From Candidatus Poribacteria bacterium (GTDB taxonomy: Bacteria; Poribacteria; WGA-4E; WGA-3G): 64,000 bases of DNA. Position numbers and translations under genes: made by a program. Under the pieces are notes generated by a model. It saw only the letters and a list, made by a program, of their open reading frames with translations. It did no database searches and was not told where the DNA came from. Positions 5,801 to 56,419 of this stretch are shown here, one piece after another. The stretch spans positions 6,505,657 through 6,569,656 of the forward strand of contig OZ251998.1 in the NCBI GenBank assembly GCA_965246985.1, in the 5' to 3' direction. How positions within the stretch are numbered: position 1 is the stretch's first letter; the number at the start of each line of letters is the position of its first letter.

Positions 5801-5842
5801 GAGAATTTTCCTTCCTTATGCTCCGATATGCGTGAGGCACGC

Positions 5843-6685: not shown

Positions 6686-6739
6686 CGCAAGAGGTTAGCA
6701 ATCGAAGGTGTAACCTGTGGATACTCCAATTGCTAAAGT

Positions 6740-6860
6740 CGCTTAAGAAGGGATGAAATTTGCCCTTCTTCCTATTTCCCTACGCTGGCATGACCCAGAT
6801 CAGGTTCAATGGGTGTTTTCTCAGCTCTTAAGCAGATAAGAGCACCCCATGATGTTGTTC
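6740..6860 (-). promoter_or_regulatory. TPP (thi-box) riboswitch controlling the thiXY-thiOS-thiG operon
   Basis: The minus strand reads ...GGGGUGCU-[P3 hairpin gcucuua/uaagagc]-CUGAGA-aaACACCC-auuGAACCUGAUCUGGGUCAUGCCAGCGUAGGGAA.... This carries all the conserved thi-box blocks. It sits 60-170 nt upstream of the first transporter gene, followed by an expression-platform hairpin (gaagaaggg...cccttcttaa). Confidence 0.8.
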
Positions 6861-6984
6861 AAATATTATTATACCTTATTCTGACTTTTAATGCAAATAT
6901 TTCGGTATATTCAACACCAGGGTCATTTAGTTTTAAACAAATTCTCGGATTGTCTAAATTTTTGGATCCTCTTTTTCAAGCTCG

Positions 6985-16021: not shown

Positions 16022-16140
16022 AAAGCAGTCGCATGAACCAGCAGCAAAATTACACTACGCAAGAGAATTTACAACTTGACGCAGGACTTATTGTATGGTA
16101 AAATAGCAATGTTAAATCAGATACTAAAAAGAAGGATAGA

Positions 16141-22808: not shown

Positions 22809-24249
22809 AATTCTTGCTATCGGTGCGGGTGGTTTACAACGCGCCTTAACCCATGAATTTGTCCATATCCTCAACGAACGGAATCTCTATAACGGCGGTA
22901 TCTTCGTCGGACAGCCACGTGGCACTGAGAAAGCCGATGCCTTTAACCAACAAAACGGAATATATCATGTCGTCACGTTTGACCTAAGTGGTATCCACGA
23001 TATCCGACAGGTTTCGAGCGTTGTCGGTGCGACTACGCTCGCTACAGAAGCCGGTCGTGAGCAGTTCTATGCCCAAGCCGAAAATCCGCTTGACCTTATC
23101 CTTATCGGTGTAACCGAAGCTGGGATCGCTAAGGGTGAACTGGCGATGGATGTGCTGGATGAGACCCTCTACCGCTATTTTTGCCACCACGGTACAGACG
23201 CGACACTCTGTGTCATCAATACAGATAACCTCCGAAATAATGGCGATGTTATTCGCGATATTCTTTGCAACGAATATCCAAGACGGAGCGATGATTACGC
23301 GAAGTGGTTGGAGACAAATGTCGGCTTTCTTAACGAAATGGGCGACCGACTCGTACCACAAGTCTATGCCGTTCCTGATGAAATTCAGGCATCCGCACGC
23401 GCACAAATTGAGCATTCTGATGAATTAATAACATACGCGGAGACACTATCTGCAACACCGCTTATTCTGGAAGATTTAGACGACATGCTACGCGTCCCGT
23501 TCGGTGAACTTCAGGACTCCGGCGTTATTGTTAGTCAGGAGAGTATTGAATCGTATCACGACTGGAAACTCCTTTTGGTGAATTCTGTTCATGTACCGGG
23601 GATTACGCACAAAGGGGCACTCTCCGGCATCGAATATGTCAACGAAGCAGCGTCACACCCAACATTCGCACCACATCTGGAACGTCTGATGAACGGATAT
23701 GCCGAGATTGTAGAAGCGGACATCCCGATAACGGGTAAAAGTGCAAGAGAATACACACTGGAATTCGTTAATCGCATTCGTCGAGTCAAAGACGACAATG
23801 CTCGGATTAACATCATTGAAACCGTGAAACTCCGCGAACGTGCCGCTGATATCGTCCGCTCACCGAACTATAATGCCAGCACAGAGCTCTTCAAATCCGA
23901 TTTCGCCTATTCCTTCGCAACGGTGCTCCGATTTCTAACACCACACGCAATCTCGTCTCTTGATGACTACAAGAGTATCACCGATACCGGTACAGCGTAT
24001 GAAATCCGAGACCCTGACCGGACGATACAGGACATTCTGAGGGGGGCATTTGGCGCGAGCCGAACAGACCTGGAAGAACGGATTGAGACTATTTTCTCAA
24101 ATGCAGCACTGTGGTCTCCAGCTGGGGCAACATCACCAAGCGGTTTGAATAAGAACCAAGACTTTATGGAACGGATTGTCCAATATTATCATCGGTTGGT
24201 TAACGGAGAGACGTGTCTTGCGGTTTTGGAGGGTATCTCCACAAAGTAG
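22795..24249 (+). CDS. mannitol dehydrogenase-family oxidoreductase (UxaB/UxuB/MtlD-like)
   Basis: N-terminal Rossmann KILAIGAGGLQRALTHEF is consistent with the mannitol-dehydrogenase family. Start ATG at 22795, preceded by AAAGGAGAAAAT. Overlaps the glycosyltransferase stop by 14 nt. Exact substrate unknown. Confidence 0.5.
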   Translation: MLPTKILAIGAGGLQRALTHEFVHILNERNLYNGGIFVGQPRGTEKADAFNQQNGIYHVVTFDLSGIHDIRQVSSVVGATTLATEAGREQFYAQAENPLDLILIGVTEAGIAKGELAMDVLDETLYRYFCHHGTDATLCVINTDNLRNNGDVIRDILCNEYPRRSDDYAKWLETNVGFLNEMGDRLVPQVYAVPDEIQASARAQIEHSDELITYAETLSATPLILEDLDDMLRVPFGELQDSGVIVSQESIESYHDWKLLLVNSVHVPGITHKGALSGIEYVNEAASHPTFAPHLERLMNGYAEIVEADIPITGKSAREYTLEFVNRIRRVKDDNARINIIETVKLRERAADIVRSPNYNASTELFKSDFAYSFATVLRFLTPHAISSLDDYKSITDTGTAYEIRDPDRTIQDILRGAFGASRTDLEERIETIFSNAALWSPAGATSPSGLNKNQDFMERIVQYYHRLVNGETCLAVLEGISTK

Positions 24250-25492
24250 AAGGGGAAGGATGGCGGTATGTGTTATCAGAATCACAGAAAGCGCGGTGGG
24301 TGACATCCATGCAGCACGTATTGCCGGGTAAACACCAAAAATGACCCCCATGAAAATAGAAAAGATGACAGATATAACCTATACTCCGCACTTCTAATTT
24401 CGGATTTTTGGTATTTATTTTTTAAACCCACGTGGTTCCAACGTTCAACAAGCAATTTCAGGTGAATCAGAGAAGATATACGTGCGAAATGAAATCTTAT
24501 TTACCATCTCTAAATTTTATTATACTGTTTGGATCCTTTCGTGACGTGGGTTTGTCTAAAAATACCAAAATGTGTCAAAACAAGTGCGGAGTGTAGGATA
24601 TAAGTATCCACTGCACGGATAATACCACAGGTCACTCCTCCACAATCGGAACAATACGAACTGCGATGCGTGCCATGCCGTGGGCGAAGAGCCAGCCCCC
24701 GGCAATACCGAGTCTGTGTCTTTTGCGGAGTACCTCCTTGGCAGAGTTAATGACAGTATAGACATCTGTGCCTTTTTGAAAAAAGACGATGAGTCTTTCA
24801 ACATAACGTTCTGAAGATATACGCTGTTGACGTGTTGTCAATGGAACAAAAATGATGTCATCCATTGACATGCCACGGCTGAGGCTTTCGCCTCTGGGCA
24901 CCATGATACCAACCACGCGGCACCTAACCCACCTTCTGCGCCTGAGGCGGATTTTCACCTCTTGTCCAAGTGGCGGAGTATTTCTGAATAACTCTGTAGC
25001 GGCGTTGACACTAAGGACACAAACCTGCTTTGCGTTGTCAACATCGTCTTCAGAAAGGAATCGCCCGTGTTGCACTTCCCATCCCATAATGTGGGCGTAG
25101 TCTGCTGTCACACCTTCAATAGTCGAACGTATTTGGACACCTTGGTTAGATGTAACCCATCTCGGATACTTTCGATTTTGTGGCAAGACATAGAGCACAT
25201 CGGGGCATTCTGCTTCAATGGCACGTGCATCAGCGAGAGAGTATCGCTCGGTTGTCCGCTTCTTCGGCTTTCCCCGTGGATACGTATAAGGGCGGACCCA
25301 GAATCGCACGTGGTTGGGGCCGCCAAGTTTTTCAATGTCGTCGGCTATAATTTTTTGGGTGCCGTCGCCAATGGCCATCATGCAGAGAACACTCGCGACC
25401 CCAATAAGGATACCGAGGATGGATAATCCAGAGCGGAGTCGGTTTTGCTGAAGGTGCGCAATGCCAGAGGTTATCGCATCATAGCACTTCAT
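24250..25492 (-). pseudogene. FtsX/MacB-type ABC permease, cassette copy 1, disrupted by an in-frame deletion and a MITE insertion
   Basis: The N-terminal 255 aa are nearly identical to the intact paralog at 36660-37922. Then an in-frame 258-bp deletion joins …RKRHR to LGIAGGW…. The extreme C-terminus (…GVIFGVYPAIRAAWMSP) lies at about 24290-24350, separated from the body by a 230-bp MITE. Confidence 0.65.
24372..24602. mobile_element. MITE with about 60-bp terminal inverted repeats inserted in permease copy 1
   Basis: Left end is atataacctatactccgcacttctaatttcggatttttggtatttattttttaaacccacgtggt. Right end in reverse complement is atatcctacactccgcacttgttttgacacattttggtatttttagacaaacccacgtcac. 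The interior is AT-rich and non-coding. Confidence 0.6.
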
Positions 25493-27551
25493 GGTATAAA
25501 TAAGGTTTCATGTCCCAAAGCAGAACGGTACCATCATAACTACCACTTGCCAGAAGTTCGCCATCCGGTGTAAAAGCTAAATCCTGTACATCCGTTGTAT
25601 GTCCCCAGAAAGTGTGTATATTTTCACCCGTTGCGACCTCCCATATCCTTATGGACACTCTGTCCACCCCCCTTATCCACCACGCCCCAGAGACGAGGTA
25701 TTTTCCGCAGGGTGAAAATGTAAGCGCAAACGGTTTGCGACAGGTTTCAGGTAGCAGGATAAGCATGCGCGTTTCCAAGGTTGTTGCATCCCGCAACCGA
25801 ATATGATCATATATCCCACAAGCGATTGTCGTGCCACAGGGCGAGAAAGCGAGTTTGTAAGGGTTACACTTATAGCGTCTCCCTATTTTTCTATTTTTTT
25901 CGATATATTGGTGTATCTGATCTGGATCCCCTCTATAGAGGGACCTATCTTCTGGTAGTTCTGTAGGGAACAATCCGATCTGTTCACCACTGACTATATC
26001 CCAGAGTCTTACTGTGCGATCTTTGGCGACGGTTGCGAGGTGTTTACCGCTTGGATGGAAAGCGACTGTTAGAATATAATTTGTATGTCCTGTAAGCATA
26101 TTGACTTTCTTCCCAGACTGTGTGTCCCATACACCAATGTCTCCTGTACCGCCTGTAGGTGCTGTACCAATGAGATGTTCACTCGTAGGTGAAAAACACA
26201 TTGCAGCGTCAAATCCTTTACTGTCTGAGAGTTTTATAATGAGGGTTTCAGACGCAATATCCCAGATTTCAATTGAACCCCTCGGAAGTTTGCAAAGTGC
26301 CAGTCGTTCTCCACAAGTAGACAATGTGCTGACTCGGAATAACTGCTGTCTTTCTTCCGTTGTGAGATTTTTAGTTTGAGTCGTGTATTGTGCCTGCATC
26401 CGCTGCGTTGGGAAAACCTGTTCTGTTTGTCTCTGTGCCACATTCCAGCATACGAGCTGCGCACCAAACATTTCCCGACTTGTTAATGTCTTACCGTTTG
26501 TAAAAAAAGCAACTGAATGTACAACAGGTTGATGATCAGCGGCATTTGAAACTTTCGTTGACAGTGGCCCGACTGTCCATACACAGAGCTCGCTATGCGA
26601 CAGGATGGTCGCGATGTGTGCTCCATCGGTTGAAAAGTGATCATGCCTGCGGTTCTGACATTCAAAGGTATCTATTTTCTCTTTTCGGATAGCATCCCAA
26701 ATCACAACTTGATGATCGTAAATATCGGCAACGCGCAGTGTGCTATCAGGTGTATAGGCAGGGATTAACCTTCTCCCATCATAAATCGTGGGTTCCGTTT
26801 CCAAAGTGCCGTTGTAAACATTCCACACCAACACCTCAGTATTCTGATTGACAGCAGCAAGATATTGCCCACAAGGCGAAAAGATGAGACTACGGTACGC
26901 CAAGGGTGCTGAGCAGTGAAGGTCCGCAATGTGTTCACTTGTTTCTATATCGGAAATCGTGAGCGTGTGACGCGGGGTTCCAGCGGACACATATCCGAGT
27001 AAGTTCCCTATCGGAGAGAAACAAATTGGAAAGTGGTGTCCCCTCTCTTCTTCTGCTACGTCAATCGGAAAGTTTGTGATGGGTGCGTTCGTGTCTTTTT
27101 GCCAAGCGTAGACAACATTTTGCTTGTCAAAACAAGAGGCAGCTAAGTATTGGTTGTCTTGAGAAAAGCAGAGCTGCGAAAAACATCCTAACATTGCTTT
27201 TACATTCTTGCGATGGTCTATCTTTGCGAGGCACTGCAGACTTTGTGTATCCCATACCTTCACAACACCATCAAGATTGCTAGTGACAATCAACTGCGTG
27301 TCGTGTGAAAAGGCAATGGTATTAAGCATCCCGCGTTCTGTTTCAAATAAGGCAAGCGGTTTCAACGACAACCTATCATATAACCAACAGCCGATCGGCG
27401 TTGCTACAGCCAGATATTTACCATCAACCGAAAAGGACATATCCGACACGCGCCCCCTTGCTAATCTGCCGATCGCACCTTCAGGCAGGTGCCAGGTTGT
27501 CACATCCGTATCAACAGCACTTCGCATCAAATTAGACTTTTCTGATTGCAA
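25479..27551 (-). CDS. cytoplasmic WD40 beta-propeller protein, cassette copy 1 (690 aa)
   Basis: No signal peptide. N-terminal W-x-LPEGA-x-GRLARG module, then at least 12 WD repeats, ending …ASGSYDGTVLLWDMKPYLYHEVL. The stop overlaps the start of the permease. Confidence 0.8.
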   Translation of the reverse strand: MQSEKSNLMRSAVDTDVTTWHLPEGAIGRLARGRVSDMSFSVDGKYLAVATPIGCWLYDRLSLKPLALFETERGMLNTIAFSHDTQLIVTSNLDGVVKVWDTQSLQCLAKIDHRKNVKAMLGCFSQLCFSQDNQYLAASCFDKQNVVYAWQKDTNAPITNFPIDVAEEERGHHFPICFSPIGNLLGYVSAGTPRHTLTISDIETSEHIADLHCSAPLAYRSLIFSPCGQYLAAVNQNTEVLVWNVYNGTLETEPTIYDGRRLIPAYTPDSTLRVADIYDHQVVIWDAIRKEKIDTFECQNRRHDHFSTDGAHIATILSHSELCVWTVGPLSTKVSNAADHQPVVHSVAFFTNGKTLTSREMFGAQLVCWNVAQRQTEQVFPTQRMQAQYTTQTKNLTTEERQQLFRVSTLSTCGERLALCKLPRGSIEIWDIASETLIIKLSDSKGFDAAMCFSPTSEHLIGTAPTGGTGDIGVWDTQSGKKVNMLTGHTNYILTVAFHPSGKHLATVAKDRTVRLWDIVSGEQIGLFPTELPEDRSLYRGDPDQIHQYIEKNRKIGRRYKCNPYKLAFSPCGTTIACGIYDHIRLRDATTLETRMLILLPETCRKPFALTFSPCGKYLVSGAWWIRGVDRVSIRIWEVATGENIHTFWGHTTDVQDLAFTPDGELLASGSYDGTVLLWDMKPYLYHEVL

Positions 27552-32595: not shown

Positions 32596-34590
32596 TTAAG
32601 AACCCATCACGGATTTCAGGTCCCAGAGGAGGATGGTGCTGTCAAAACTCCCACTCGCTAAGAGGGTGCCGTCGGGTGAAAACGCGAGATCTTGGACATC
32701 GGTCGGGTGTCCCCAGAAGGTGGCGATGTTTTCGCCGGTGGCAACTTCCCACAAGCGAATAGGCACCTTTTCTGTTTCCACGGCCCTATTCCACCACGCG
32801 CCAGAAGCAAGATATTGCCCACAAGGTGAAAACGCCAAGGCACGCGGATTTCCATTGGTAGGTGCATGAGGAAGAGTCAAAAGAGTTCGACAATTATTGA
32901 CATCCCACAATCGGATTTCCGTTGCCATGCCACAAGCGATCTTATGACCGCAAGGTGAAAACGCGACAGTATAGACACGGTTGACACGGAACTCCGGATT
33001 TTCTTTCCCCGTATCGATGTCCCATAGATTTGCCATCGTGCCAGAAGAACTCGGAACACTTACAAGGTGTTTACCGTCGTGGCTGAATATAAGGCGGCTG
33101 ATACGATTATGATCATCATCCCAATTCCCTTCTAAGGGGAGAGTGTGTGTGAGCACACAGCGCACGTCACCACTTCTCATATCCCATACATACAGATGCC
33201 CTTTGCTATCCCCGCACGCGATGAGATGTCGTAGCGGGGCGTGTGCTGCGGCAGTCACCACTGCCTCTGGGTCGGGAAGTGTAAATGTCATAGGTGTCGT
33301 GTTTTCGTCGGCTTCCCCTATTTTAACGGTTATTTTAACAGTATTTTCATCATACGCAAATGCTGTCGAGTGAATTTTCTCTGAAGTGGACACAGAAACG
33401 GCTCGTGGGTCACCGGATATTTTGAAAAAAGTGGGCGGTTGCATGGGGTTGGCAATATCCCATAATAGCGTGCTTCCATACCTTACAAACCCGGCTGCCA
33501 CCTTTTTGCCATCTTGTGAGAACGCTACGGAATTCGGAAAACCGACATGTAAATGCGGCACCTTGCGGGGTTTGGTATCCCCGGGTGACCAGACTGCCCA
33601 TTCCTTTCCCCCAGCAACGACAAAATGCGAACTGCTTGAAAAAAGTGCTTTATCAATCTCCCATTCCTTTTCAACGTACGTGTAGCGTTTTTCATGACGT
33701 TCCACGTCCCACACGACGACAGTGTTTCTTTCCAGAGCATTTTCCAGAGTCTGAAGAACGCCTTCCTGTGAATAGCAGACGCTCATGCGAGAGGTGCCAT
33801 CATAGTTCTGATATACTCGCTGCTGTTCCCAAGTATTCACATTCCATACGTGCACTGTGCCTTTATCGCTGCCGATGGCCAGAGTTTGTCCACAAGGTGA
33901 AAAGCAGAGGCTGCGCACAAAGCTCGGTTGTTCGGTAAGACAGGCGATGCGCTCACCGGTTACGACATCCCACACCAAAACAACATCGGGGCCATCCGTT
34001 GTCCCGGCGGGAGCCGTACACGCCAGCAGGCGACTGTCTGGCGAAAAAGCAACGGGTCGAGGGAGGGAGGGGTAAGAACTGCGTGTTTCTCTTTGGGGGT
34101 CATGGAACGTAGCCAGCGGTGTGCCGGTTCTGGGGTCCCAGGTGTAGACAATCTCACAACGGCTACCTGTTGCGGCCAGGTGCTGGTTATCAGGTGAAAA
34201 GGCAAGAGACTTAATTGCAGTCGTCCTAGGGACTGGCTTTTTTAACCCTGGCCGCACAATTTTTGTAATGCAGGTGCTCCGCTGGATATCCCACACTTTG
34301 ATAACACCATCCCAGTTGCCGGTCGCAGCCAATCGCCCATCAAGAGAAATAGTAATGGCACCCAGCATTCCTCGTTCTGTTTCCCATAGAGCAACAGGTT
34401 GCATTGTCGCGAGTTCATACCACCAGAGCCCAATTTTGGTTGCGGCTGCGAGGTATGCTCCATCCGGCGATACTGCCATCGCCATCACAGTTCCACGCCC
34501 GAACCGAGAAATCGCACCATCCGGTAAAGCCCAGCTCATTGGATGACCTTTATCAGCGACAATGGGCGTGGACCCTGTTTTTTCTGACAT
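32596..34590 (-). CDS. cytoplasmic WD40 beta-propeller protein, cassette copy 2 (664 aa)
   Basis: AGGAGG sits 8 nt upstream of the ATG. N-terminal W-x-LPDGA-x-SRFGRG module, WD repeats, and a C-terminal …ASGSFDSTILLWDLKSVMGS. Confidence 0.8.
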   Translation of the reverse strand: MSEKTGSTPIVADKGHPMSWALPDGAISRFGRGTVMAMAVSPDGAYLAAATKIGLWWYELATMQPVALWETERGMLGAITISLDGRLAATGNWDGVIKVWDIQRSTCITKIVRPGLKKPVPRTTAIKSLAFSPDNQHLAATGSRCEIVYTWDPRTGTPLATFHDPQRETRSSYPSLPRPVAFSPDSRLLACTAPAGTTDGPDVVLVWDVVTGERIACLTEQPSFVRSLCFSPCGQTLAIGSDKGTVHVWNVNTWEQQRVYQNYDGTSRMSVCYSQEGVLQTLENALERNTVVVWDVERHEKRYTYVEKEWEIDKALFSSSSHFVVAGGKEWAVWSPGDTKPRKVPHLHVGFPNSVAFSQDGKKVAAGFVRYGSTLLWDIANPMQPPTFFKISGDPRAVSVSTSEKIHSTAFAYDENTVKITVKIGEADENTTPMTFTLPDPEAVVTAAAHAPLRHLIACGDSKGHLYVWDMRSGDVRCVLTHTLPLEGNWDDDHNRISRLIFSHDGKHLVSVPSSSGTMANLWDIDTGKENPEFRVNRVYTVAFSPCGHKIACGMATEIRLWDVNNCRTLLTLPHAPTNGNPRALAFSPCGQYLASGAWWNRAVETEKVPIRLWEVATGENIATFWGHPTDVQDLAFSPDGTLLASGSFDSTILLWDLKSVMGS

Positions 34591-47236: not shown

Positions 47237-47995
47237 ATGAAAATCATAATAGCGAATTTAATGCTTGCGAGTTTAATTGTTCTGGGTCTAATGTTTGCCG
47301 GTGTTAGCAGTGCCGAATTGGATCTGAAAACCGTTGTCGGGATGTGGCTCTTTGATGAGGGCAAGGGGGATACGGCAGTGGATTCCTCTGAAAATGGCAA
47401 TGACGGGGAACTTGTGAACGGTCCGAAATGGGTAAAGGATGGTAAGTTCGGATCCGCGCTGGAATTTGATGGAAATGAGAGTAAAGGACATGTCGTTGTC
47501 GGGGATTTGGGCTTGTCTGGAACGGTCACGTTAACTTTGTGGGCAAATCCGAGTGATGCCGCCGATGATGATCGGTTAATATCGAATCTCAGTGGGCCAA
47601 CGAATCCGGCTTTCTCAATTCGGTTCCAAAGTGGCGCGGTTGACATTTGGGGCAGGGCGTGGAAACCCGTCATCCCAAAATTTGATGACAATCAATGGGG
47701 ACACTATGCGTTTGTATTGGATGGCGAGGGAAACGCGACGGGCTATTACAATGGCAAAGAAGAGGACACAGTTGCCGATACCTATATTTTTACGGATATC
47801 GGTATTGGGGCAACTTTTTTGCATCAATGGGGACAATATTTTTCCGGTCAGTTCGACGGGATTGCATTTTTCGATGTCGCGCTGACTGAAGATGATATTA
47901 AAATCCTCATGACAAGAGGACTCAAGTCCGCGTTGGCGGTTTACTCGGCAGGTAAATTAGCCACTACATGGGGAAATATAAAAGTCAACCCATAA
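47237..47995 (+). CDS. secreted concanavalin-A-like lectin/LamG-type domain protein
   Basis: Signal peptide; …GNDGELVNGPKW…GSALEFDG… resembles the Laminin_G_3/DUF1080 fold. Confidence 0.55.
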   Translation: MKIIIANLMLASLIVLGLMFAGVSSAELDLKTVVGMWLFDEGKGDTAVDSSENGNDGELVNGPKWVKDGKFGSALEFDGNESKGHVVVGDLGLSGTVTLTLWANPSDAADDDRLISNLSGPTNPAFSIRFQSGAVDIWGRAWKPVIPKFDDNQWGHYAFVLDGEGNATGYYNGKEEDTVADTYIFTDIGIGATFLHQWGQYFSGQFDGIAFFDVALTEDDIKILMTRGLKSALAVYSAGKLATTWGNIKVNP

Positions 47996-48007: not shown

Positions 48008-49453
48008 GTGCAAAGCAACCTTCATCAGCGTTTCCCGTTGCAGATAGAATCTGGTGTACTCAGGACACTCTTCGTCGTCATGGCAATAGTAGTGGTAGGT
48101 CTCTCGGCTTCCTACGCGGAAGACCGTGTTGCGGGGCATTGGGAGGGACAGATTGACATTCCCGGTCAACCCATTGCCGTGAAGATAGATCTCGCAATCG
48201 ATGACGGTGACTGGAGTGGAACGATCGACATTCCGACCCAAGGTGCGAACGGTTTACCCTTATCTGACATCCACGTTGTGGAAGAAGATGGTACGCGCGT
48301 CAAATTCTCAATTCGCGGCGTACCGGGGAATCCGACCTTCGATGGAAAACTACAAGATAGTGCCATCAGTGGCACATTCAGCCAAAGTGGTGCCACCTTC
48401 GGTTTCCGACTCTCTCGTGAGATTGTGAGTGGTCCCAAAAGGCCGCAAGAACCCAAACCCCCATTCCCCTATAAAATCGAAGAGGTCGCATTTCAGAACG
48501 GTGTTGTCAACCTTGCTGGCACTCTGACGTTACCACTTGGTGAGGGTCCGTTTCCTGCGGTGCTGCTCATCTCCGGCAGCGGTTTGCAAGACCGAGACGA
48601 GACTGTGTTCGACCACAAACCGTTTTGGGTGCTTGCCGATCACTTGAGCCGTGCAGGTATCGCCGTACTCCGCGTCGATGATCCGGGTATCGGTAAGTCA
48701 ACACCGCATCCGAAGCCGCCAACGACAGCGGATTTCGCAACTGACGTGGAGGCAGGTGTGGCGTTCCTCAAGCAGGATGACCGAATTGGTCGTGTCGGGT
48801 TGATCGGTCACAGCGAAGGTGGTCTCATCGCAGCCATCGTCGCCAGTCGCAGCAATGATGTCGGTTTCGTGGTGCTGATGGCGGGTCCTGGTGTGCCCGG
48901 TGCCGAGTTACTACGGAAACAGAACGAACGCATTTTTGATGCAGCGGGCATCGCGGGTGAGCGTAAACAGAATTTACTGACGCTCCTTGATCGGTTGTTT
49001 ACTATCTTGACTTCAGAAGATATGACGGAAGACGCACAGCGACAAGGGGTTGATGAAATTGTCCGCAAGCAGCTTGAAATTAACGGTGTTCCTCCGGCAC
49101 AACAGGACGAGGCGCAGGTACAGGCACTCGTAGAACAGTCACTTACGCCTTGGATGCGCTACTTCTTGACTTTCGATCCGCGGCCTGCCATTGAGACAAT
49201 TCAGGTGCCTGTCCTCGCACTCAACGGTGAACTTGATGTGCAAGTTGATGCCGAACAAAACCTTACCGCTATCGCTGAGTCTCTCAACAAAGGCGGGAAT
49301 CGCAACGTCACCGTGCATCGCTTGCTGGAACACAATCACCTGTTTCAACATGCTCGTACAGGTCTGATGAACGAGTACGGTGCGATTGAGGAGACGCTCT
49401 CACCGAAGGTGCTTGACCTTATCCGAGACTGGGTACTGTCTGTGAGACAATAA
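48008..49453 (+). CDS. secreted alpha/beta-hydrolase (S9/dienelactone-hydrolase-like)
   Basis: N-terminal hydrophobic segment. GHSEGG nucleophile elbow (GxSxG) and a downstream Asp/His. Probable start is the internal Met at about 48071. Confidence 0.65.
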   Translation: MQSNLHQRFPLQIESGVLRTLFVVMAIVVVGLSASYAEDRVAGHWEGQIDIPGQPIAVKIDLAIDDGDWSGTIDIPTQGANGLPLSDIHVVEEDGTRVKFSIRGVPGNPTFDGKLQDSAISGTFSQSGATFGFRLSREIVSGPKRPQEPKPPFPYKIEEVAFQNGVVNLAGTLTLPLGEGPFPAVLLISGSGLQDRDETVFDHKPFWVLADHLSRAGIAVLRVDDPGIGKSTPHPKPPTTADFATDVEAGVAFLKQDDRIGRVGLIGHSEGGLIAAIVASRSNDVGFVVLMAGPGVPGAELLRKQNERIFDAAGIAGERKQNLLTLLDRLFTILTSEDMTEDAQRQGVDEIVRKQLEINGVPPAQQDEAQVQALVEQSLTPWMRYFLTFDPRPAIETIQVPVLALNGELDVQVDAEQNLTAIAESLNKGGNRNVTVHRLLEHNHLFQHARTGLMNEYGAIEETLSPKVLDLIRDWVLSVRQ

Positions 49454-49481: not shown

Positions 49482-51434
49482 ATGCTAAGACGCTTTTCAA
49501 GAATACTACATCTCCAAATAGGGATTACCGAAAAAAAACGAGAGTTCATGATGAAAAAAACGTTATTTTCCAACTTTTTGACGCTCCTTATTGTTTTTTC
49601 AATGCTCCACCTACTGCCCAACACCTTCGCCCAAGACAACACACAGTGGGGGGTACCTGAGGGGGCAAGAGCCCGACTCGGTAGAGGCGGAACAGGTGAG
49701 ATGCGGTATTCTCCCGACGGGACGCTCCTCGCGGTGTCAAGCGGCATCGGTATTTGGCTCTACGATACCGCAACCTATCAAGAAATTAGCCTGCTCACCG
49801 GGCAAAGCGAAGAAATCTTCAGCATCGCGTTTAGTCCTGACGGAAAAACAATTGCGAGTGGGTGTTATGATGGGACTATCCGTTTATGGGATCTCGGCAC
49901 AGGTACGCACAAGACAAGGCTCACAACGTATAAGGTTAGTGTCAATAGCGTGGCATTCAGCCCAGATGGGCGCACACTTGTGTGTGGAAGTGACGATGGC
50001 ACTGTCCACCTCTGGGATGCACACACCGGCGAACATCAGAAAACACTCACGGGACATACGGATAATGTCTACAGCGTGGCATTCAGCCCGGATGGACAGA
50101 CACTCGCCAGTGGGAGCGACGACACCGACACCATTCGCCTCTGGGATGCACACACCGGCGAACACAAGAAAACGCTCACAGGACATGCCGATGGGATTAT
50201 AAGTTTATCGTTCACGCCAAATGGGCGCACCCTTGCCAGTGGGAGCTACGATAGGACTATCCGCCTCTGGAATGTACATACCGGCGAACATCAGAAAACA
50301 CTCACGGGACATACGGATAATGTCTACAGCGTGGCATTCAGCCCGGATGGACGCACACTTGCCAGTGGAAGCGAAGACGGCACTGGCCGCCTCTGGGAAG
50401 CACACACCGGCGAACACAAGAAAACGCTCACAGGACATATAGGAGCGGTCTATAACGTAGCATTCAGTCCCGATGGACAGACACTCGCCAGTGGGGGTGG
50501 GAGAGAAGTCCGCCTCTGGAATGCCCACACCGCAGAACATCAAAAAACGCTCACGGGATATACCGAACAAGTCTCAAGTGTAGCGTTCAGCCCAGATGGA
50601 CAGATACTCGCAAGCGGAAGTGATCCTGGCGAGACCGTTGACTTCTGGGATGGAGACACGGGTGCTCACAAAAAAACGCTCACTGGAGATATAGGACGAG
50701 TTTTCAGTATAGCGTTCAGCCCCGATGGAAAAACGCTCGCCAGTGGGACTCTTAAAAATCCGCCCCACTTGTGGGACGTGCATACTGGCACGCACAAGCA
50801 GGCATTCAAAGGACCGGCCCCGGTCTATTGCGTAGCGTTCAGCCCCGATGGAAAAACACTTGCCAGTGGGGGTTGGGAGGATATCCACCTCTGGGATGCA
50901 CACACCGGTGAGCGCAAGAGAATACTTGAAGGACATACGTTGTGGGTGAGAAGCGTGGCATTCAGCCCAGATGGACAGACACTCGCAAGCGGAAGCGGCG
51001 ACGATACCATCCGCCTCTGGGAGGTGCACACTGGCAAGCTCACGAACATACTCATAGGACATGCAGACGGTGTCATAAGTGTGACGTTCAGCCCCGATGG
51101 AAAAACACTCGCCAGTGGGGGTGGGGACGGGACCCTCCGCCTCTGGAATGCACACACCGGCACATCCAAAATAACCCCCACCGGACATACAGATTGGGTT
51201 AATAGCGTGGCGTTCAGTCCCGATGGGAAAATACTCGCTAGCGGAAGCAGAGACGGCAATATCCACCTCTGGGATGCGGATACTGGTGAACACAAGAAAA
51301 CGCTCACAGGGCATACATTCTGGGTGGAAAGTCTCGCCTTCAGTCCCGATGGAAAAACACTCGCCAGTGGGAGTTTGGACAGCACAGTACTATTGTGGGA
51401 ACTATTCGAGACACCGCCACCAACGCCACGATGA
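49482..51434 (+). CDS. secreted WD40-repeat protein (about 14 repeats) without a dockerin
   Basis: Signal peptide (probable start MMKKTLFSN at about 49548). Repeats are nearly identical at the nucleotide level, for example LWDAHTGEHKKTLTGH four times. Ends …LWELFETPPPTPR. Confidence 0.8.
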   Translation: MLRRFSRILHLQIGITEKKREFMMKKTLFSNFLTLLIVFSMLHLLPNTFAQDNTQWGVPEGARARLGRGGTGEMRYSPDGTLLAVSSGIGIWLYDTATYQEISLLTGQSEEIFSIAFSPDGKTIASGCYDGTIRLWDLGTGTHKTRLTTYKVSVNSVAFSPDGRTLVCGSDDGTVHLWDAHTGEHQKTLTGHTDNVYSVAFSPDGQTLASGSDDTDTIRLWDAHTGEHKKTLTGHADGIISLSFTPNGRTLASGSYDRTIRLWNVHTGEHQKTLTGHTDNVYSVAFSPDGRTLASGSEDGTGRLWEAHTGEHKKTLTGHIGAVYNVAFSPDGQTLASGGGREVRLWNAHTAEHQKTLTGYTEQVSSVAFSPDGQILASGSDPGETVDFWDGDTGAHKKTLTGDIGRVFSIAFSPDGKTLASGTLKNPPHLWDVHTGTHKQAFKGPAPVYCVAFSPDGKTLASGGWEDIHLWDAHTGERKRILEGHTLWVRSVAFSPDGQTLASGSGDDTIRLWEVHTGKLTNILIGHADGVISVTFSPDGKTLASGGGDGTLRLWNAHTGTSKITPTGHTDWVNSVAFSPDGKILASGSRDGNIHLWDADTGEHKKTLTGHTFWVESLAFSPDGKTLASGSLDSTVLLWELFETPPPTPR

Positions 51435-51476
51435 CAGCCATTCAACTGATAACCTGAAATATAAGGAGAATCCGCT

Positions 51477-54400
51477 ATGGAGCACCAGGTCCTCATTACA
51501 ATTTCTGTAGTCGTCGTACTGATGTTAGCAAGTGAATTCAGTAGTATGATGGCAGCTGAACCCGAAGGGTTGATTGGTCGTTGGGATTTTGACGATGGAA
51601 CAGGCACTGACCTATCTGGTAACAACAACCATGCGGTACTCGGCGGAACACAGATCTACGCACTCGGTGAAGGACGTGCCTGCATCGAAATGATGCCGGA
51701 TACAGAACCGTTGCGGATTCCCGTGCCTGAGAACTCTCCGCTTGCGATGTCGCGCGGCACAATCTGCTTCTGGCTAAATACGGCGTGGGGTAAACCCAAC
51801 ATCCTCAAATACGATAACGGGGCAGTAGAACTCAACAACTATCGCGGCTGTTTTCAGGTGCGTTTCCAAGGTGAAAACGACTTCCGCTACTGGGACGGGA
51901 TTCTTGATTACGACTGGCCACAGTACGACATGCGCGAATGGGCGTTCTATCCACATCTAAAAGCCTCAGTCTGCGACTCCGAGTGGCATCTGTTCGCGGT
52001 TGCCTACGACGACAAAGCAAAGCAGATCGTAGGGTGGCGCGATGGAGAGCAAATTGCAACTATTGATCTGTCGAAAGTAGACATGGAACTACTACGCCGC
52101 GAAGGTCTAACAGAGATTCACACCGGTGAAGGGTTTGTCGGTTATCTCGACGATCTGCGTATCTACGACAAACCGCTGAACGACACAGAAATCCGCCAGA
52201 TTTATAATGCCACCAAAGCCATCTATGCAGGTAGGCAAGACACGAATCCGACCGATAAAGAGCAAAACATCTACAAATACCAAGAAGTAGACGGGACGCT
52301 TTACAAGGCGTGGCTGCAGTTCAATCCACCCTCCAAACAACACAATCAGGATTTATTTAAAAATATTGTTGCTGAAGGCGAAAATTCAACCGTACAGACA
52401 GCGGGCACTGAATTGGCGCAAGCGATAGAATCAATGTTCAGTTTCAAACCTTCTGTCTCGGCAACCCACCCTGTTTCTGGATCAACAAGGATTATCCTTG
52501 GCACAGTTGAAACCTCTAAATGGATCCGCAATTTTGCTGATGAACTCGGACTGGATCGGATCGAACGGGACGGATTCGTCATCAAGACGTTGAAAGAGGG
52601 CACAGACGTTGCAATTACCGTCGCTGGGAAAATTCCAGCAGGCGTTGTTTTCGGTGCGTTTGACCTAATGCGTCGTATTCAACTCGGGCAAGATCCGCTT
52701 ACATTTGATGTAGTTGAAAACCCACAGGTACCTATCCGCATGGTGGCGCACTGGTCCTACTTCCGTGGGTTTTTGGGAGATAAGTGGCGCGGCGGCGGTA
52801 GAGACGGTTCAATCTTCAGTTGGGAAGAGCTGCGCACCGGCGATACCCAATTGATTCGCGATTGGGTGCGTATGCTGGCATCGTGCGGTTGGAACGCGCT
52901 CTGTCCGAGTGAGATCAATTGGCACTACCGAAACAACTTCTTAGAACATCTTGATGAAGTCGAAAAACTTGGAAACATCTGCCGAGATTACGGGATCAAA
53001 CTCTATTGGAGTCCGAGTTATCTCCTTGCACTCGACCCAAAAACCGCCGACGCAATCTACGCCAGAGTCCCCGACTTCGGCGGATATATGATGAAACTCG
53101 GCTCAGAGAAACAGAACGGCGACCCGCGTCCGCCGATGGTGAACCGGATTGCTGACACGTTGAAACCACACGGTGGAACTGTCCTCGTCCGAGCATTCGT
53201 CTACGGCAACCTCCGATACACACCAGAACCCTACCGAAATCTAATCCCCTACGATCTGTTTGCGCATGAAGATGGCAACTTTCGAGATAACGTCGTTATA
53301 ATTCCCAAGGGCAGCCCTATGGATTGGGACCTTGCGGCACCTATCCCCGCACTTGATGGCGCGATTCAAAAAAACTTATCTGGAAGTGAACTCGTCATCG
53401 ACAAAAGCTGGCCCGTCTCTTGGGTCAAGAAATGGAAGTGGTGGTTTGAACAGGATACCTATCGGGACGGACCCGGAAGTCTGAACAAATCCAGTGTAGA
53501 CTGCATCATGGGTGTGTCTATGATTGAACCTTCGCCAGCATGGACAAAATGCCCACTGAACGCTGTAAACTATTACGGACTCGGACGACTCACTTGGAAC
53601 CCGGATCTAACAGTAGACGATATCTATACAGAATGGATCCGACAGACATTCGGCGATGATCCAGAGGTACTTACGACAACCAAGACCCTCTTGATGATGC
53701 TTGAAGAAGTTACGCGCAAGTGCTACAACTATCGCGGGTATCGCGGCGTGTGGCTCGATTCCAGCGACGACGGTATGACCCAAAACAAGACCCCCTATAT
53801 CGTGAATAAGAAAGGCATGGGCGTTCTAACACCTACGTTGCAAGAACGGGTACTGGCACAGTACGCACCGGGATTGCGCAAGATATATGGAGACCCGTTA
53901 CGTGGGGAGGCGCACCTTACTACCTTCCATTTCGCAGCACATGACCAACCTCTCTCCATCGGCAGAACCCTCATACAAGACATCTACGCCAACATGGAAG
54001 AAGGGGTCGAAATGGCTTCGCAAGCAGCCGAACTCTGGAAAACACTTCAGGGAAAAATAGATCCACACAGATACGAATACACCCTAAAGACCTTGGCAGA
54101 CTATGCCACATCCGTACGCAGCCTTACTCTTAAGAAATGGGTAACGAACTTTGAAGCACATACCGGCAGGACCCGTCTGAACACACTCGCAGAACTGACG
54201 CAAGAGGCACTTGCGAAAGTTGGCACGTATAATGTCCGGCATTTCGGTACTGTTGCCGATGGCAAATCGGACGATGCAGACGCAATCAACCGAGCCATTG
54301 ATGCCTGCAACGCCGCTGGGGGTGGCACCGTCTTTGTGCCATCTGGGGTTTATGCAACGGGCTCCATCTACCTGAAAAGCAACGTCTCCTTTGCCCTTGA

Positions 54401-54920
54401 TACTGGTGCTGCACTCAAATTTTCCTCGTCAGATACTGATGTTTCGCTGCTTATCGGAAAAGACTTAGAAAACGTGAAAATCTACGGTCCTGGCACCCTC
54501 AACGGAGTAGGCAATAACGGCATTACGCTACTACACTGCAAGAATGTAGGAATCCGAAACTTGAATGTCCATAACGGTGGCAATTCTGCCGTCTTTGTGA
54601 TGGAGTGCGATGGCGTGCTGGTGGACAACATCAACATCCGAACAGATCAGGATGGACTCAACCTCTCCGAATGCTGTAACGTAACGGTTAGCGACTGTCG
54701 CATTGACGCAGTACACCGCGAGTACGGAAGACCTGTAGATGGTGGTGCCGCAATAAAATTTGATGGCGAAGTCTCCGCGTCCGATAACATCACTGTTCAA
54801 AATTGCTTTCTTGCCAACGGTGGGAGTGTGGTTGAAACCGACACAGAGAGTAGTCCCCGCAATATCCGTTATGAGAACGTTCGGGTTCTCCATGGTTTAC
54901 CTATAGCGCACACGCACTAA
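51477..54920 (+). CDS. 1147-aa secreted multidomain carbohydrate-active protein: LamG-like N-terminus + GH67 (alpha-glucuronidase)-like catalytic core + C-terminal pectin-lyase-fold beta-helix (GH28-related)
   Basis: N-terminal signal peptide and …GLIGRWDFDDGTGTD…NNHAVLGG… (LamG). A central block, …MVAHWSYFRGFLGD…VRMLASCGWNALCPSEIN…YGIKLYWSPSYLL…VPDFGGYMMKLGSEKQNGDP…VLVRAFVYGN…, matches GH67 TIM-barrel motifs. C-terminal …YNVRHFGTVADGKSDDADAINRAIDACNAAGGGTVFVPSGVYATGSIYL… matches the polygalacturonase / pectate-lyase-like beta-helix. Confidence 0.65.
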   Translation: MEHQVLITISVVVVLMLASEFSSMMAAEPEGLIGRWDFDDGTGTDLSGNNNHAVLGGTQIYALGEGRACIEMMPDTEPLRIPVPENSPLAMSRGTICFWLNTAWGKPNILKYDNGAVELNNYRGCFQVRFQGENDFRYWDGILDYDWPQYDMREWAFYPHLKASVCDSEWHLFAVAYDDKAKQIVGWRDGEQIATIDLSKVDMELLRREGLTEIHTGEGFVGYLDDLRIYDKPLNDTEIRQIYNATKAIYAGRQDTNPTDKEQNIYKYQEVDGTLYKAWLQFNPPSKQHNQDLFKNIVAEGENSTVQTAGTELAQAIESMFSFKPSVSATHPVSGSTRIILGTVETSKWIRNFADELGLDRIERDGFVIKTLKEGTDVAITVAGKIPAGVVFGAFDLMRRIQLGQDPLTFDVVENPQVPIRMVAHWSYFRGFLGDKWRGGGRDGSIFSWEELRTGDTQLIRDWVRMLASCGWNALCPSEINWHYRNNFLEHLDEVEKLGNICRDYGIKLYWSPSYLLALDPKTADAIYARVPDFGGYMMKLGSEKQNGDPRPPMVNRIADTLKPHGGTVLVRAFVYGNLRYTPEPYRNLIPYDLFAHEDGNFRDNVVIIPKGSPMDWDLAAPIPALDGAIQKNLSGSELVIDKSWPVSWVKKWKWWFEQDTYRDGPGSLNKSSVDCIMGVSMIEPSPAWTKCPLNAVNYYGLGRLTWNPDLTVDDIYTEWIRQTFGDDPEVLTTTKTLLMMLEEVTRKCYNYRGYRGVWLDSSDDGMTQNKTPYIVNKKGMGVLTPTLQERVLAQYAPGLRKIYGDPLRGEAHLTTFHFAAHDQPLSIGRTLIQDIYANMEEGVEMASQAAELWKTLQGKIDPHRYEYTLKTLADYATSVRSLTLKKWVTNFEAHTGRTRLNTLAELTQEALAKVGTYNVRHFGTVADGKSDDADAINRAIDACNAAGGGTVFVPSGVYATGSIYLKSNVSFALDTGAALKFSSSDTDVSLLIGKDLENVKIYGPGTLNGVGNNGITLLHCKNVGIRNLNVHNGGNSAVFVMECDGVLVDNINIRTDQDGLNLSECCNVTVSDCRIDAVHREYGRPVDGGAAIKFDGEVSASDNITVQNCFLANGGSVVETDTESSPRNIRYENVRVLHGLPIAHTH

Positions 54921-54988: not shown

Positions 54989-56419
54989 ATGTATCTCAAT
55001 AAAAAAATTATACCTCTGCTATTAGGCGGTTTTCTGTTATCCATAGCAATAGGTTGTATCACGGATACCCCCGGCCAATCTAAGCAATCTAAAAACACGT
55101 ATGTCTTTAACCGTGCTAATACCGAAAATGCCCTAGATCGCACCGAGGCATTTACATCAAATCTACCGATTGTGATTATTGATACGTCTGGACAATGGAT
55201 TCGCGACGAACCTAAAATTCCGGCGCGGATGAAGATTATTTACGATCAATCTGGCGGTAGGAACGCATTGGATAGTTCCCATGTTGATTTTGAGGGGGAG
55301 ATCGGTATAGAGATTCGGGGGAAAACTTCGCAAGGGTTTAGGAAAAAACAGTACGGCATTGAAACTCAGGACGAACAAGGTAATGACAAAGATGTTTCGT
55401 TGTTGCAATTGCCAGCGGAATCGGATTGGGTTTTAAATGGACCCTATTCGGATAAAACGCTCATGCGAAATTACTTGGCGTACGAGTTCAGCAATCGAAT
55501 CGGCAGATACGCAAGTAGAACAAAGTTTGTTGAAATGTTTCTGAATGACAGGGGGGATGCGACAATCGGAAACAGACATTATGTTGGTGTCTATCTACTG
55601 ATAGAGAAGATTAAGCGAGGGAAAAACCGCGTCGATATTCAACCGCTAAAACCCGCGGACAGCACGGGTGGTTATATCCTGAAAATTGACAAGATGGACC
55701 GCTATGAAACCTATTTCTCCACTCGTTACGGGACACGGTTGTTTCATGTATATCCGAAAGGATACGAGATGTCTGATGCCCAAAAGGCATGGATTCAGAA
55801 CTATATGAGCGAATTTGAAGCAGCATTAGCTGGCAAGGATTTTAAGGACCCGGAACACGGATATGCCAAGTACATTGATATTGACGCTTTTATCGACCAT
55901 TTCATCATCAATGAGCTTTTCAGAAATATAGATGGATTTCGGAACAGCACATACATGTACAAAGACAGAGACGGCAAACTGACAATGGGACCCGTCTGGG
56001 ATTTCAACTTATCAATGGGCAATTCAAGTTTCAGTGAGGGTTGGAAAACGGATGGATGGCTCATTTATACAAACCGTGTCCCCTTTTGGTGGGATAGACT
56101 CCTAAAAGACAGGAACTTCAGGCAAAAACTCGTCAAGAGATGGCAGGCACTTCGGAGAGATGAACTCGCCACTTCTAAACTCCTTGACGAGATTAATCGA
56201 ACTGCTAAGTATCTGTCCGAGGCACAAAAACGAAATTTCCAGAGATGGCCCGTGCTGGGTCGCCGTGTTTTCGGTAATCCCAATTCTGGTCTGCCTACAT
56301 ACCAACAAGAGGTCCAACAAATGAAAAATTGGGTACAGGCTCGGCTGAAGTGGATAGATAAACATATTGAAGCACCACGTCCATCGCCTTTCAGCAGGCG
56401 GAGGCTAAGAGATTTCTAA
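54989..56419 (+). CDS. CotH-family lipoprotein (atypical kinase fold)
   Basis: Lipobox …SIAIGC. …YLAYEFSNRIGRYASRTKFVEMFLNDRGD…HYVGVYLLIEKIKRGKNRVDI…GGYILKIDK… resembles CotH. Confidence 0.55.
   Translation: MYLNKKIIPLLLGGFLLSIAIGCITDTPGQSKQSKNTYVFNRANTENALDRTEAFTSNLPIVIIDTSGQWIRDEPKIPARMKIIYDQSGGRNALDSSHVDFEGEIGIEIRGKTSQGFRKKQYGIETQDEQGNDKDVSLLQLPAESDWVLNGPYSDKTLMRNYLAYEFSNRIGRYASRTKFVEMFLNDRGDATIGNRHYVGVYLLIEKIKRGKNRVDIQPLKPADSTGGYILKIDKMDRYETYFSTRYGTRLFHVYPKGYEMSDAQKAWIQNYMSEFEAALAGKDFKDPEHGYAKYIDIDAFIDHFIINELFRNIDGFRNSTYMYKDRDGKLTMGPVWDFNLSMGNSSFSEGWKTDGWLIYTNRVPFWWDRLLKDRNFRQKLVKRWQALRRDELATSKLLDEINRTAKYLSEAQKRNFQRWPVLGRRVFGNPNSGLPTYQQEVQQMKNWVQARLKWIDKHIEAPRPSPFSRRRLRDF

Follow-up and report, generated by a model that had tools for sequence, protein, structure and literature searches.

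Gene and domain architecture

The window (the whole stretch of DNA analyzed here, 64,000 nucleotides of contig OZ251998.1 from the Candidatus Poribacteria assembly GCA_965246985.1) harbors at 51477..54920 of its forward strand a gene, hereafter the target gene, whose product is related to two families of glycoside hydrolases (GH67 and GH28) and is probably, as argued below, a uronidase of non-canonical specificity. Results revealed a complete open reading frame (ORF) with an ATG start, encoding 1147 amino acids followed by a stop codon, and a Shine-Dalgarno sequence (AAGGAGA, 51463-51469) 6 nucleotides (nt) upstream of the ATG. The encoded protein comprises, in order, a putative signal peptide, a LamG-like beta-sandwich, a full GH67 core with its N-terminal (N), middle (M), and C-terminal (C) domains, and a GH28-type beta-helix. 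Unless marked (-), all features given below lie on the (+) strand.

The N-terminus of the target protein is hydrophobic and signal-like (MEHQVLITISVVVVLMLASEFSSMMA, followed by AEPEG), forms a helix at residues 3-22 in the AlphaFold model, and is matched in the orthologues by n-regions with K/R and by the same junction, A-x-A followed by (A/E)EP. Residues 1-27 (51477..51557), ending in SSMMA before AEPEG, are thus best described as a putative Sec signal peptide. The next domain, residues ~30-262 (51564..52262), is a LamG or concanavalin-A-like beta-sandwich according to Pfam, the structural model, Foldseek, and the relatives. The Laminin_G_3 profile (PF13385) matched its residues 90-239 with 27.1 bits, just below the cut-off of 27.6, and the assignment is made because the same profile scores 46.7-72.7 bits in clade relatives (and is precomputed for most orthologues), because the all-beta sandwich predicted by AlphaFold, with a predicted local distance difference test (pLDDT) score of 70-90, matches lectin jelly-rolls, and because the domain resembles a neighboring LamG_3 protein, a distant paralogue (BLASTP, E=8e-7). 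In Foldseek searches, this N-terminal domain matched domain 4 of AbnA (5hon, TMt 0.70) and the Hc lectin domains of clostridial neurotoxins. The ratio of nonsynonymous to synonymous substitution rates (dN/dS), computed per domain over 534 orthologue pairs, was 0.083 for the LamG domain. Judging from its sequence and its modeled fold, the domain is a probable carbohydrate-binding module.

The GH67 core consists of the N-terminal domain (Glyco_hydro_67N, residues 279-397, 52311..52667, 65.8 bits), the catalytic TIM-barrel (Glyco_hydro_67M, residues 402-667, 52680..53477, 116.2 bits), and the C-terminal helical domain (Glyco_hydro_67C, residues 693-876, 53553..54104, 92.7 bits), all exceeding the Pfam gathering cut-offs of 24.3, 23.5, and 27 bits for PF03648, PF07488, and PF07477, respectively. 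A helical linker follows (residues 877-917, 54105..54227; helices 863-896 and 900-914 in the model; dN/dS 0.19), and then a truncated GH28-type right-handed beta-helix (residues 918-1115, 54228..54821), recognized by Pfam, alignment, and model, and a ragged C-terminal tail (residues 1116-1147, 54822..54917), which is poorly conserved, has low pLDDT, and shows a dN/dS of 0.30. For residues 919-1138, Pfam returned Pect-lyase_RHGA_epim (PF12708, 39.6 bits), Beta_helix (PF13229, 35.7 bits), and Glyco_hydro_28 (PF00295, 29.4 bits). Annotation pipelines label the orthologues either as ‘alpha-glucuronidase family glycosyl hydrolase’ (NCBI) or as ‘right-handed parallel beta-helix repeat-containing protein’.

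The original prediction, made from the sequence letters, had proposed a secreted protein of 1147 residues with a LamG-like domain, conserved GH67 TIM-barrel blocks, and a C-terminus carrying the N-terminal signature of pectinase beta-helices. Its coordinates proved exact, the LamG-like domain was borne out by the relatives, the beta-sandwich model, and the neighboring paralogue despite the Pfam score below cut-off, the GH67 blocks extended to all three domains, and the beta-helix indeed corresponds to only the N-terminal part of the GH28 profile.

Catalytic and pocket residues of the GH67-like core

Residues 278-874 aligned end to end with the GH67 enzymes AguA (1k9d, E=1.9e-71) and GlcA67A (1gqi, E=4.4e-38). 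Individual residues, given in AguA numbering, were mapped in a MAFFT alignment of 58 family sequences from three phyla with 36 canonical GH67 representatives. Near-invariant among the latter were W150, E158, N199, V200, N201, K281, E285, R318, K359, D364, E386, T390, E392, and Y393, and W150, N201, K281, E285, R318, K359, D364, and E386 were kept in all 58 family sequences. In the target protein, the general acid Glu (E285 in AguA and E292 in GlcA67A, replaced in the mutant PDB entries 1k9e E285N and 1h41 E292A) corresponds to E544, D364 to D616, and E386 to E638, and the carboxylate clamp Lys281/Arg318/Lys359 is present as K540, R572, and K611, invariant in the family.

In canonical GH67, Glu392 lies within the motif ITQEY(T/L)GQ and is 100% conserved (36/36 representatives). 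Asp364 and Glu392 have reportedly been assigned as the water-activating pair (Nurizzo et al. 2002; Golan et al. 2004). The target protein carries, in place of the canonical ElqITQEYtGq motif, the segment ELVIDKSW (residues 638-645, 53388..53411), in which Glu392 corresponds to S644; throughout the family (58/58) this position is S, G, N, K, or A and is followed by a deletion of 4-6 residues. Moreover, nearly every family member has Asp (D642) in place of T390, all have Glu (E479) in place of N199, and E158 is lost (G434); a further five-residue deletion follows the acid-bearing loop of the target protein relative to AguA and GlcA67A. As such, the catalytic Glu and Asp on which the original prediction had made its GH67 assignment depend are present as E544 and D616, but Glu392 is replaced by S644 and its loop is deleted.

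The register at Glu392 was reproduced with a profile hidden Markov model (HMM) of canonical GH67, built without the two-module protein P0124 described below, and with hhalign, at posteriors of ~0.9 at D642 and ~0.6 at S644. The sole acids of the 638-645 segment, E638 and D642, are 4 residues apart and the canonical pair is 6 apart, so that no alignment can match both. An alignment artefact as the source of the Glu392-to-Ser change was ruled out by the agreement of phmmer, MAFFT, the profile HMM, and hhalign. Canonical GH67 is at least 90% conserved at 92 positions, and of these the target protein keeps 54 and has 32 changed; deletions account for 9 of the 32 and are concentrated next to the acid-bearing loop and next to Glu392.

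Six residues around the 4-O-methyl group of the substrate are fully conserved in 24 characterized GH67s (W152, E160, N201, V202, N203, and K283 in BhGlcA67; PMC8056927). The corresponding pocket of the target protein keeps W426, N481, and K540 and has a conservative V-to-I change (I480), whereas the E-to-G (G434) and N-to-E (E479) changes are family-wide. Also, several clusters that lack Glu392 have an acid at neither position 390 nor 392, yet keep E285 and mostly D364. The barrel appears to be functional in some sense because its dN/dS of 0.041 is the lowest of all domains of the protein.

Placement within GH67

An exhaustive HMMER search with residues 270-880 against 1.84 billion cluster representatives returned 1011 matches, with a clear gap in score: 1012 bits for the family's own cluster, 732-335 bits for about eight others (37-51% identity), and at most 227 bits for all the rest, which is canonical GH67 (~30% identity). 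In the tree, the subfamily formed a separate clade with a support of 100/100. Relatives within the wider Glu392-less clade (P0123, P0126, P0127, and P0129) combine LamG_3 with the GH67-like core and carry no beta-helix; the conserved evolutionary unit is therefore LamG plus GH67-like core, with the GH28 part as an add-on of one subclade. One further protein, P0124 (1599 aa), contains a canonical GH67 module (66-736, with LQVTQEY), a LamG_3 domain (791-930), and a Glu392-less GH67-like module (961-1568, with FMIAKDFP). Since it pairs the two barrel types in one chain, P0124 argues that they are non-redundant.

On this comparison, the target protein is best filed as a divergent member of a small GH67 subfamily that is nearly always LamG-fused, and not as a canonical alpha-glucuronidase, because its fold, domain architecture, general acid, Asp364 equivalent, and carboxylate clamp agree with GH67, whereas Glu392 and the methyl pocket do not. 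No paper on a LamG-fused, Glu392-less GH67 subfamily was found in the literature searched.

Truncation of the GH28-type beta-helix

The Glyco_hydro_28 match covers profile positions 1-183 of 324 (~55%), and the protein ends there. Kept in this stump is the N-terminal cap (NVRHFG..DG..DD..AI..A). The active site of GH28 has been described as comprising the segments NTD, DD, GHG, and RIK (PMC6102391). At the first of these, the target protein has RTDQDG, whose D1059 lines up with the Asp found in SRDG of relatives with a longer C-terminus (the long forms) and in NNDG of 5olp; the position is D or N in the short forms, which share the truncation of the target protein. At motif II, the DD pair is replaced by G1090/A1091 (VDGGAAIK, 54735-54758). 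The pair occurs in none of 115 short forms, which carry GGGE (57), GGGA (23), GGGT (16), GGGD (5), or others, and GGDD is present in 13 of the 15 long forms. Where GHG is expected as motif III, the target protein has ANGG, and the long forms likewise lack the His, like rhamno-polygalacturonases; motif IV (RIK) is absent, the protein terminating before it. Furthermore, the helix of the target protein has internal deletions of ~21 and ~12 residues relative to the long forms and ends ~55 residues past the DD site, and the C-terminal tails of the short forms vary in length and sequence. Lacking the DD, GHG, and RIK segments, the module is not a functional GH28.

The missing half was searched for with tblastn. 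The C-terminal half of GH28 was found in all 18 non-poribacterial loci covering the region (E<=1e-61), and neither the window nor any of the poribacterial loci yielded more than chance matches with E>2. A frameshift or a continuation of GH28 into the next ORF was rejected, as that ORF, 68 nt downstream, encodes a complete CotH lipoprotein and the tblastn search was negative. The stump showed a dN/dS of 0.13-0.17, which rules out a neutrally decaying relic, and relaxation was approached only in the last ~45 residues (0.30). AlphaFold predicted a regular beta-helix (pLDDT 75-91), for which Foldseek found 4mxn as the best match (TM 0.70-0.72, root-mean-square deviation ~4 A), ahead of the full GH28 structures 3jur and 5olp (TM 0.40). 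From this combination of selection and modeled fold, we infer that the stump is now a non-catalytic structural or binding module.

Distribution and gene history

More than 110 orthologues with 77-87% identity and the same length and domain set were identified, and all named ones belong to Candidatus Poribacteria, sponge symbionts; their identical architecture rules out an assembly chimera. A scan with one genome per species yielded 63 loci, of which ~40 were poribacterial, with intact genes encoding 1107-1167 aa, and ~20 were from Planctomycetota and Bacteroidota, encoding proteins of 1357-1414 aa with 56-68% identity over residues 1-~1139. These long forms came from Phycisphaerae, Pirellulales, Sedimentisphaerales, and Fuerstiella among the Planctomycetota and from Prolixibacteraceae, Maribellus, and Bacteroidaceae among the Bacteroidota. 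The LamG-GH67-like-GH28 fusion is real and old, and extends across three phyla.

A neighbor-joining tree of the GH67 core recovered the poribacterial short forms as monophyletic (100/100) and the short and long forms together as monophyletic relative to the LamG-only relatives (100/100), while monophyly of the long forms was unsupported (46/100). Because the short forms are monophyletic in this tree, the simplest history is a single truncation of GH28 on the poribacterial stem.

Two sets of sequences depart from the usual lengths. In three poribacterial loci (L004, L028, and L057), the longest orthologue ORF comprised 604, 791, and 1029 aa, respectively, although tblastn spanned nearly the whole query; frameshifts, pseudogenes, or assembly errors are possible causes. 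In addition, P0115, P0116, P0117, and P0119 (~64-66% identity, 1142-1209 aa) have a beta-helix cut at other points, with GGGD or GGGE as motif II, and their tails are odd and basic (…RFSSVRKR). They may represent either frameshifts in the gene calls or separate events of GH28 decay beyond the main clade of Poribacteria.

Genomic neighborhood

The genes around the target gene are co-directional with short gaps. Upstream are a gene for an extracytoplasmic function (ECF) sigma factor (46370-47014), a gene for a small secreted LamG_3 protein of 252 aa (47237..47995), one for an esterase-like alpha/beta-hydrolase of 481 aa (48008..49453), and one for a WD40 protein with 12 repeats (49482-51434). 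Downstream are a CotH lipoprotein gene (54989-56419, with an AIGC lipobox) and, beyond it, a Bat-type cluster for MoxR (an AAA+ ATPase), a protein with DUF58/vWA, and BatA (57602-61750). Across the poribacterial loci, the small LamG_3 protein was the most conserved neighbor (immediately upstream in 36/40), followed by the alpha/beta-hydrolase (22/40), a major facilitator superfamily (MFS) gene (17/40), and CotH (13/40); the WD40 gene occupied its position in ~4 of 40 loci and the ECF sigma gene was found in 3 of 40. The conserved partners are the small LamG protein and the esterase, not CotH or the ECF sigma factor; the context of a CotH lipoprotein and an upstream ECF sigma factor drawn on by the original prediction is present in the window but is not conserved. 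The alpha/beta-hydrolase was also considered as a glucuronoyl (CE15) esterase, for which there was no signal, and it showed generic similarity to carboxyl- and cinnamoyl-esterases far below the cut-offs.

The poribacterial neighbors listed above accompany none of the long forms. Instead, the planctomycetal long forms adjoin stand-alone GH28 genes (L002, L030, L031, L033, L035, and L054), one of them also a LamG-GH31 gene, and the Bacteroidaceae long form lies directly behind SusC/SusD (one genome). Because of this adjacency to stand-alone GH28 or SusC/SusD, the ancestral setting appears to be a locus for acidic-glycan degradation, of which Poribacteria would keep only the GH67-like activity. 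The link to uronic-acid-containing glycans drawn in the original prediction is in line with these settings. In the planctomycetal locus L035, a gene at 4817-7945 encodes a protein of 1043 aa with LamG_3 and GH31 domains, between a stand-alone GH28 gene and the long fusion, showing that an N-terminal LamG_3 domain recurs on glycosidases in these loci.

Several other features were observed in the window and at the related loci. The WD40 gene between the esterase gene and the target gene shows a presence/absence polymorphism, occurring in L008, L009, L010, and L015 (76-90% identity), with the esterase gene abutting the target gene elsewhere. The window encodes five large WD40-repeat proteins of 650-718 aa, at 13889-16021 (+), 25479-27551 (-), 32596-34590 (-), 37924-40080 (-), and 49482-51434 (+), in keeping with a published account of eukaryote-like repeat proteins in Poribacteria (PMC3909097). 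The Bat-type cluster is strongly conserved among Poribacteria (MoxR 93-98% identity) and flanks the variable glycosidase region; in the 6.5-Mb poribacterial genome of L001, an IS605-type OrfB/TnpB gene (Cas12f1-like, 15407-16615) lies between CotH and MoxR, and the window lacks it. A sigma-70 consensus (TTGACA-17-TATAAT, 12/12) was located at 46202-46230 (+), preceding the ECF sigma gene by ~140 nt. No other site in the 12 kb scanned matched perfectly, and the site is a match to the consensus only. The scan for promoters and terminators gave no firm operon boundaries, the terminators not being in excess. Farther away, a complete thiamine pyrophosphate (TPP) riboswitch (RF00059, 67.7 bits, E=3.8e-11) was detected at 6760-6859 (-), upstream of the ORF 5843-6685 (-). 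A mannitol-dehydrogenase-family oxidoreductase is encoded at 22762-24249 (+), with tagaturonate reductase, of the hexuronate-catabolism type, as its best NCBIfam model (118.9 bits, below the cut-off), and a homologue of it was found ~10 kb upstream of the L001 orthologue (L001 1-554).

Proposed function and alternative explanations

It is proposed, as the probable reading, that the target protein is secreted and acts as an inverting exo-alpha-uronidase of non-canonical specificity, in which the LamG domain and the beta-helix stump are non-catalytic. The protein would be a periplasmic or extracellular glycoside hydrolase with a single activity. A uronic acid at the non-reducing end would be held through its C6 carboxylate by K540, R572, and K611, E544 would serve as the general acid and protonate the leaving group, and D616 would serve as the general base and activate water. 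In an inverting hydrolase, one acid and one base suffice, and since only one base is needed, a one-base mechanism of this kind would tolerate the loss of Glu392. A working active site is further suggested by the strong purifying selection on the barrel (0.041) and on the LamG domain (0.083). The sugar or the aglycone is likely to differ from the 4-O-methyl-glucuronoxylo-oligosaccharide of classical GH67, because the O4 pocket is rebuilt (Glu479, Gly434), the loops are deleted, and Glu392 is lost; candidate substrates are unmethylated glucuronic acid, or a C4 epimer such as galacturonic acid, on a non-xylan acidic glycan. The LamG domain would bind the glycan and target the enzyme to it. The stump would be the remnant of a GH28 exo-uronidase that was fused to the GH67-like unit in the clade ancestor. 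In Poribacteria, a single event would have removed the C-terminal half together with the catalytic Asp pair, and the rest would have been retained as a structural or binding module.

A more far-reaching idea, which we put forward tentatively, is that the LamG plus GH67-like clade embodies a new uronidase specificity with a single-base inverting mechanism, for example as an alpha-galacturonidase or as an alpha-glucuronidase acting on non-xylan marine or animal acidic glycans, in a family to which only (4-O-methyl-)alpha-glucuronidase activity on xylo-oligosaccharides has so far been ascribed. The poribacterial GH28 would then have been converted into a non-catalytic binding or scaffold module while the lineage adapted to glycans of the sponge matrix or of dissolved organic matter.

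Several points weigh against a catalytically active uronidase of this kind. The activity of classical GH67 reportedly depends on Asp364 as well as on Glu392 (Nurizzo 2002; Golan 2004), and the loss of Glu392 could thus leave the core inactive. Asp642 was rejected as a universal replacement for Glu392, since other Glu392-less clusters lack it. Moreover, the AlphaFold barrel reached a pLDDT of only 25-40 (owing to a shallow alignment), too low for judging the active-site geometry, and the neighborhood in the window contains no other clear glycoside hydrolase and no xylanase or xylosidase that would point to a substrate.

We regard it as improbable that both modules are catalytically dead and that the protein is a secreted, multi-domain, lectin-like glycan binder, which might serve, for instance, in attaching to acidic glycans of the sponge matrix or of algae or in sensing them. 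Such a pseudoenzyme would fit the loss of one canonical catalytic carboxylate together with the deletion of the neighboring loops, the dead GH28, and the two lectin-type modules in the locus, and the retained carboxylate-binding residues would be equally needed for binding alone. However, E544 and D616 do not vary among the 58 sequences, which represent three phyla, dN/dS is lower in the barrel than in any other domain, and the acid and the base that suffice for an inverting hydrolase are both present; the long forms, furthermore, keep an apparently active GH28 beside the GH67-like module, which fits an enzymatic partnership.

The likelihood is lower still that the protein is an ordinary GH67 enzyme, as its three above-threshold Pfam domains, its end-to-end alignment with AguA, the name given to its orthologues by NCBI, and its conserved acid, Asp364, and carboxylate clamp would imply. 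In a sponge metatranscriptome, GH67 transcripts attributed to WGA-4E, a class of Poribacteria, were also assigned to xylan degradation (PMC13200403), and these transcripts may stem from the target gene; P0124, in addition, joins a GH67-like module to a canonical one. Against this reading stand the loss of Glu392, the change of two of the six methyl-pocket residues (E158 to G and N199 to E), the differences at 32 of 92 canonical-invariant positions including the deletions in active-site loops, the ~30% identity with a clear score gap, and the lack of xylanase or xylosidase neighbors, and the fusion with a canonical GH67 in P0124 speaks against redundancy.

The joint action of a GH67 alpha-glucuronidase and a GH28 pectinase, both of them active, on complex uronic-acid glycans, that is, the glucuronoxylan debranching and pectinase activity in one chain that the original prediction had suggested, is plausible for full-length relatives in other phyla (GGDD; JGI ‘alpha-glucuronidase/polygalacturonase’) and would accord with the matches to both Pfam families and with the retained motif I Asp (D1059), but it can practically be dismissed for the target protein, whose helix stops at profile position 183 of 324 with G1090/A1091 in place of DD and no GHG or RIK, all short forms lacking the DD pair and the missing half not being encoded downstream.

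Implications for CAZyme-based inference

GH67 serves as a marker of glucuronoxylan debranching in genome and metatranscriptome surveys, those of sponge symbionts included. In such surveys, the target protein would be scored as GH67, as would its relatives across the three phyla, with GH28 scored in addition in some cases, despite the lost Glu392, the rebuilt pocket, and, in Poribacteria, the dead stub. If the substrate of the subfamily differs, calls of ‘xylan/pectin degradation’ that rest on it would be wrong, and the known activities of GH67 would be extended. Moreover, the locus provides a clean natural case in which the second catalytic domain of a fusion has decayed to a conserved non-catalytic module. 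The subfamily thus offers both a caution for inference from carbohydrate-active enzyme (CAZyme) annotation and a candidate new specificity within GH67.

Comparison with known systems

Among characterized enzymes, AguA of Geobacillus stearothermophilus T-6 (1k9d/1mqq) and GlcA67A of Cellvibrio japonicus (1gqi) share with the target protein the architecture of N-terminal domain, TIM-barrel, and helical domain, and equivalents of their general acid Glu, Asp364, Glu386, and Lys/Arg/Lys clamp are all present in it. Identity to them is ~28-33%, and the target protein differs in having Ser for Glu392 with the loop deleted, Gly for Glu158, and Glu for Asn199, as well as in its additional N-terminal LamG domain and C-terminal beta-helix. 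For the LamG domain, domain 4 of the GH43 arabinanase AbnA (5hon) provides a beta-sandwich of similar size, with 12-13% identity.

The closest counterparts of the whole protein are the long fusions (for example P0112, P0118, and loci L030-L065; JGI ‘alpha-glucuronidase/polygalacturonase’), which have the same domain order and the same Glu392-less pattern. They differ from the target protein in having a complete GH28 with GGDD and an R-x-G-K segment, the target protein lacking ~230 C-terminal residues. GH28 exo-pectinases share the cap and first coils with the stump, including 5olp from Bacteroides thetaiotaomicron (a galacturonidase), the NCBIfam entries BT4146/BT4153 (rhamnogalacturonidases) and BT4155 (alpha-D-galacturonidase), and 3jur from Thermotoga (an exo-polygalacturonase). 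The stump scored 104 bits against the BT4146 model at positions 1-65 (equivalog cut-off 500) and matched 5olp with E=1.3e-17, and it differs from these enzymes in having about half of the helix and no DD, GHG, or RIK segments. Finally, PARMER_00599 of Parabacteroides merdae (4mxn), a stand-alone ‘putative glycosyl hydrolase’ of 226 residues, is similar to the stump (E=1.9e-9), although its identity is ~20% and it is not fused to a GH67-type enzyme, and shows that a beta-helix of the length of the stump can be a stable independent fold.

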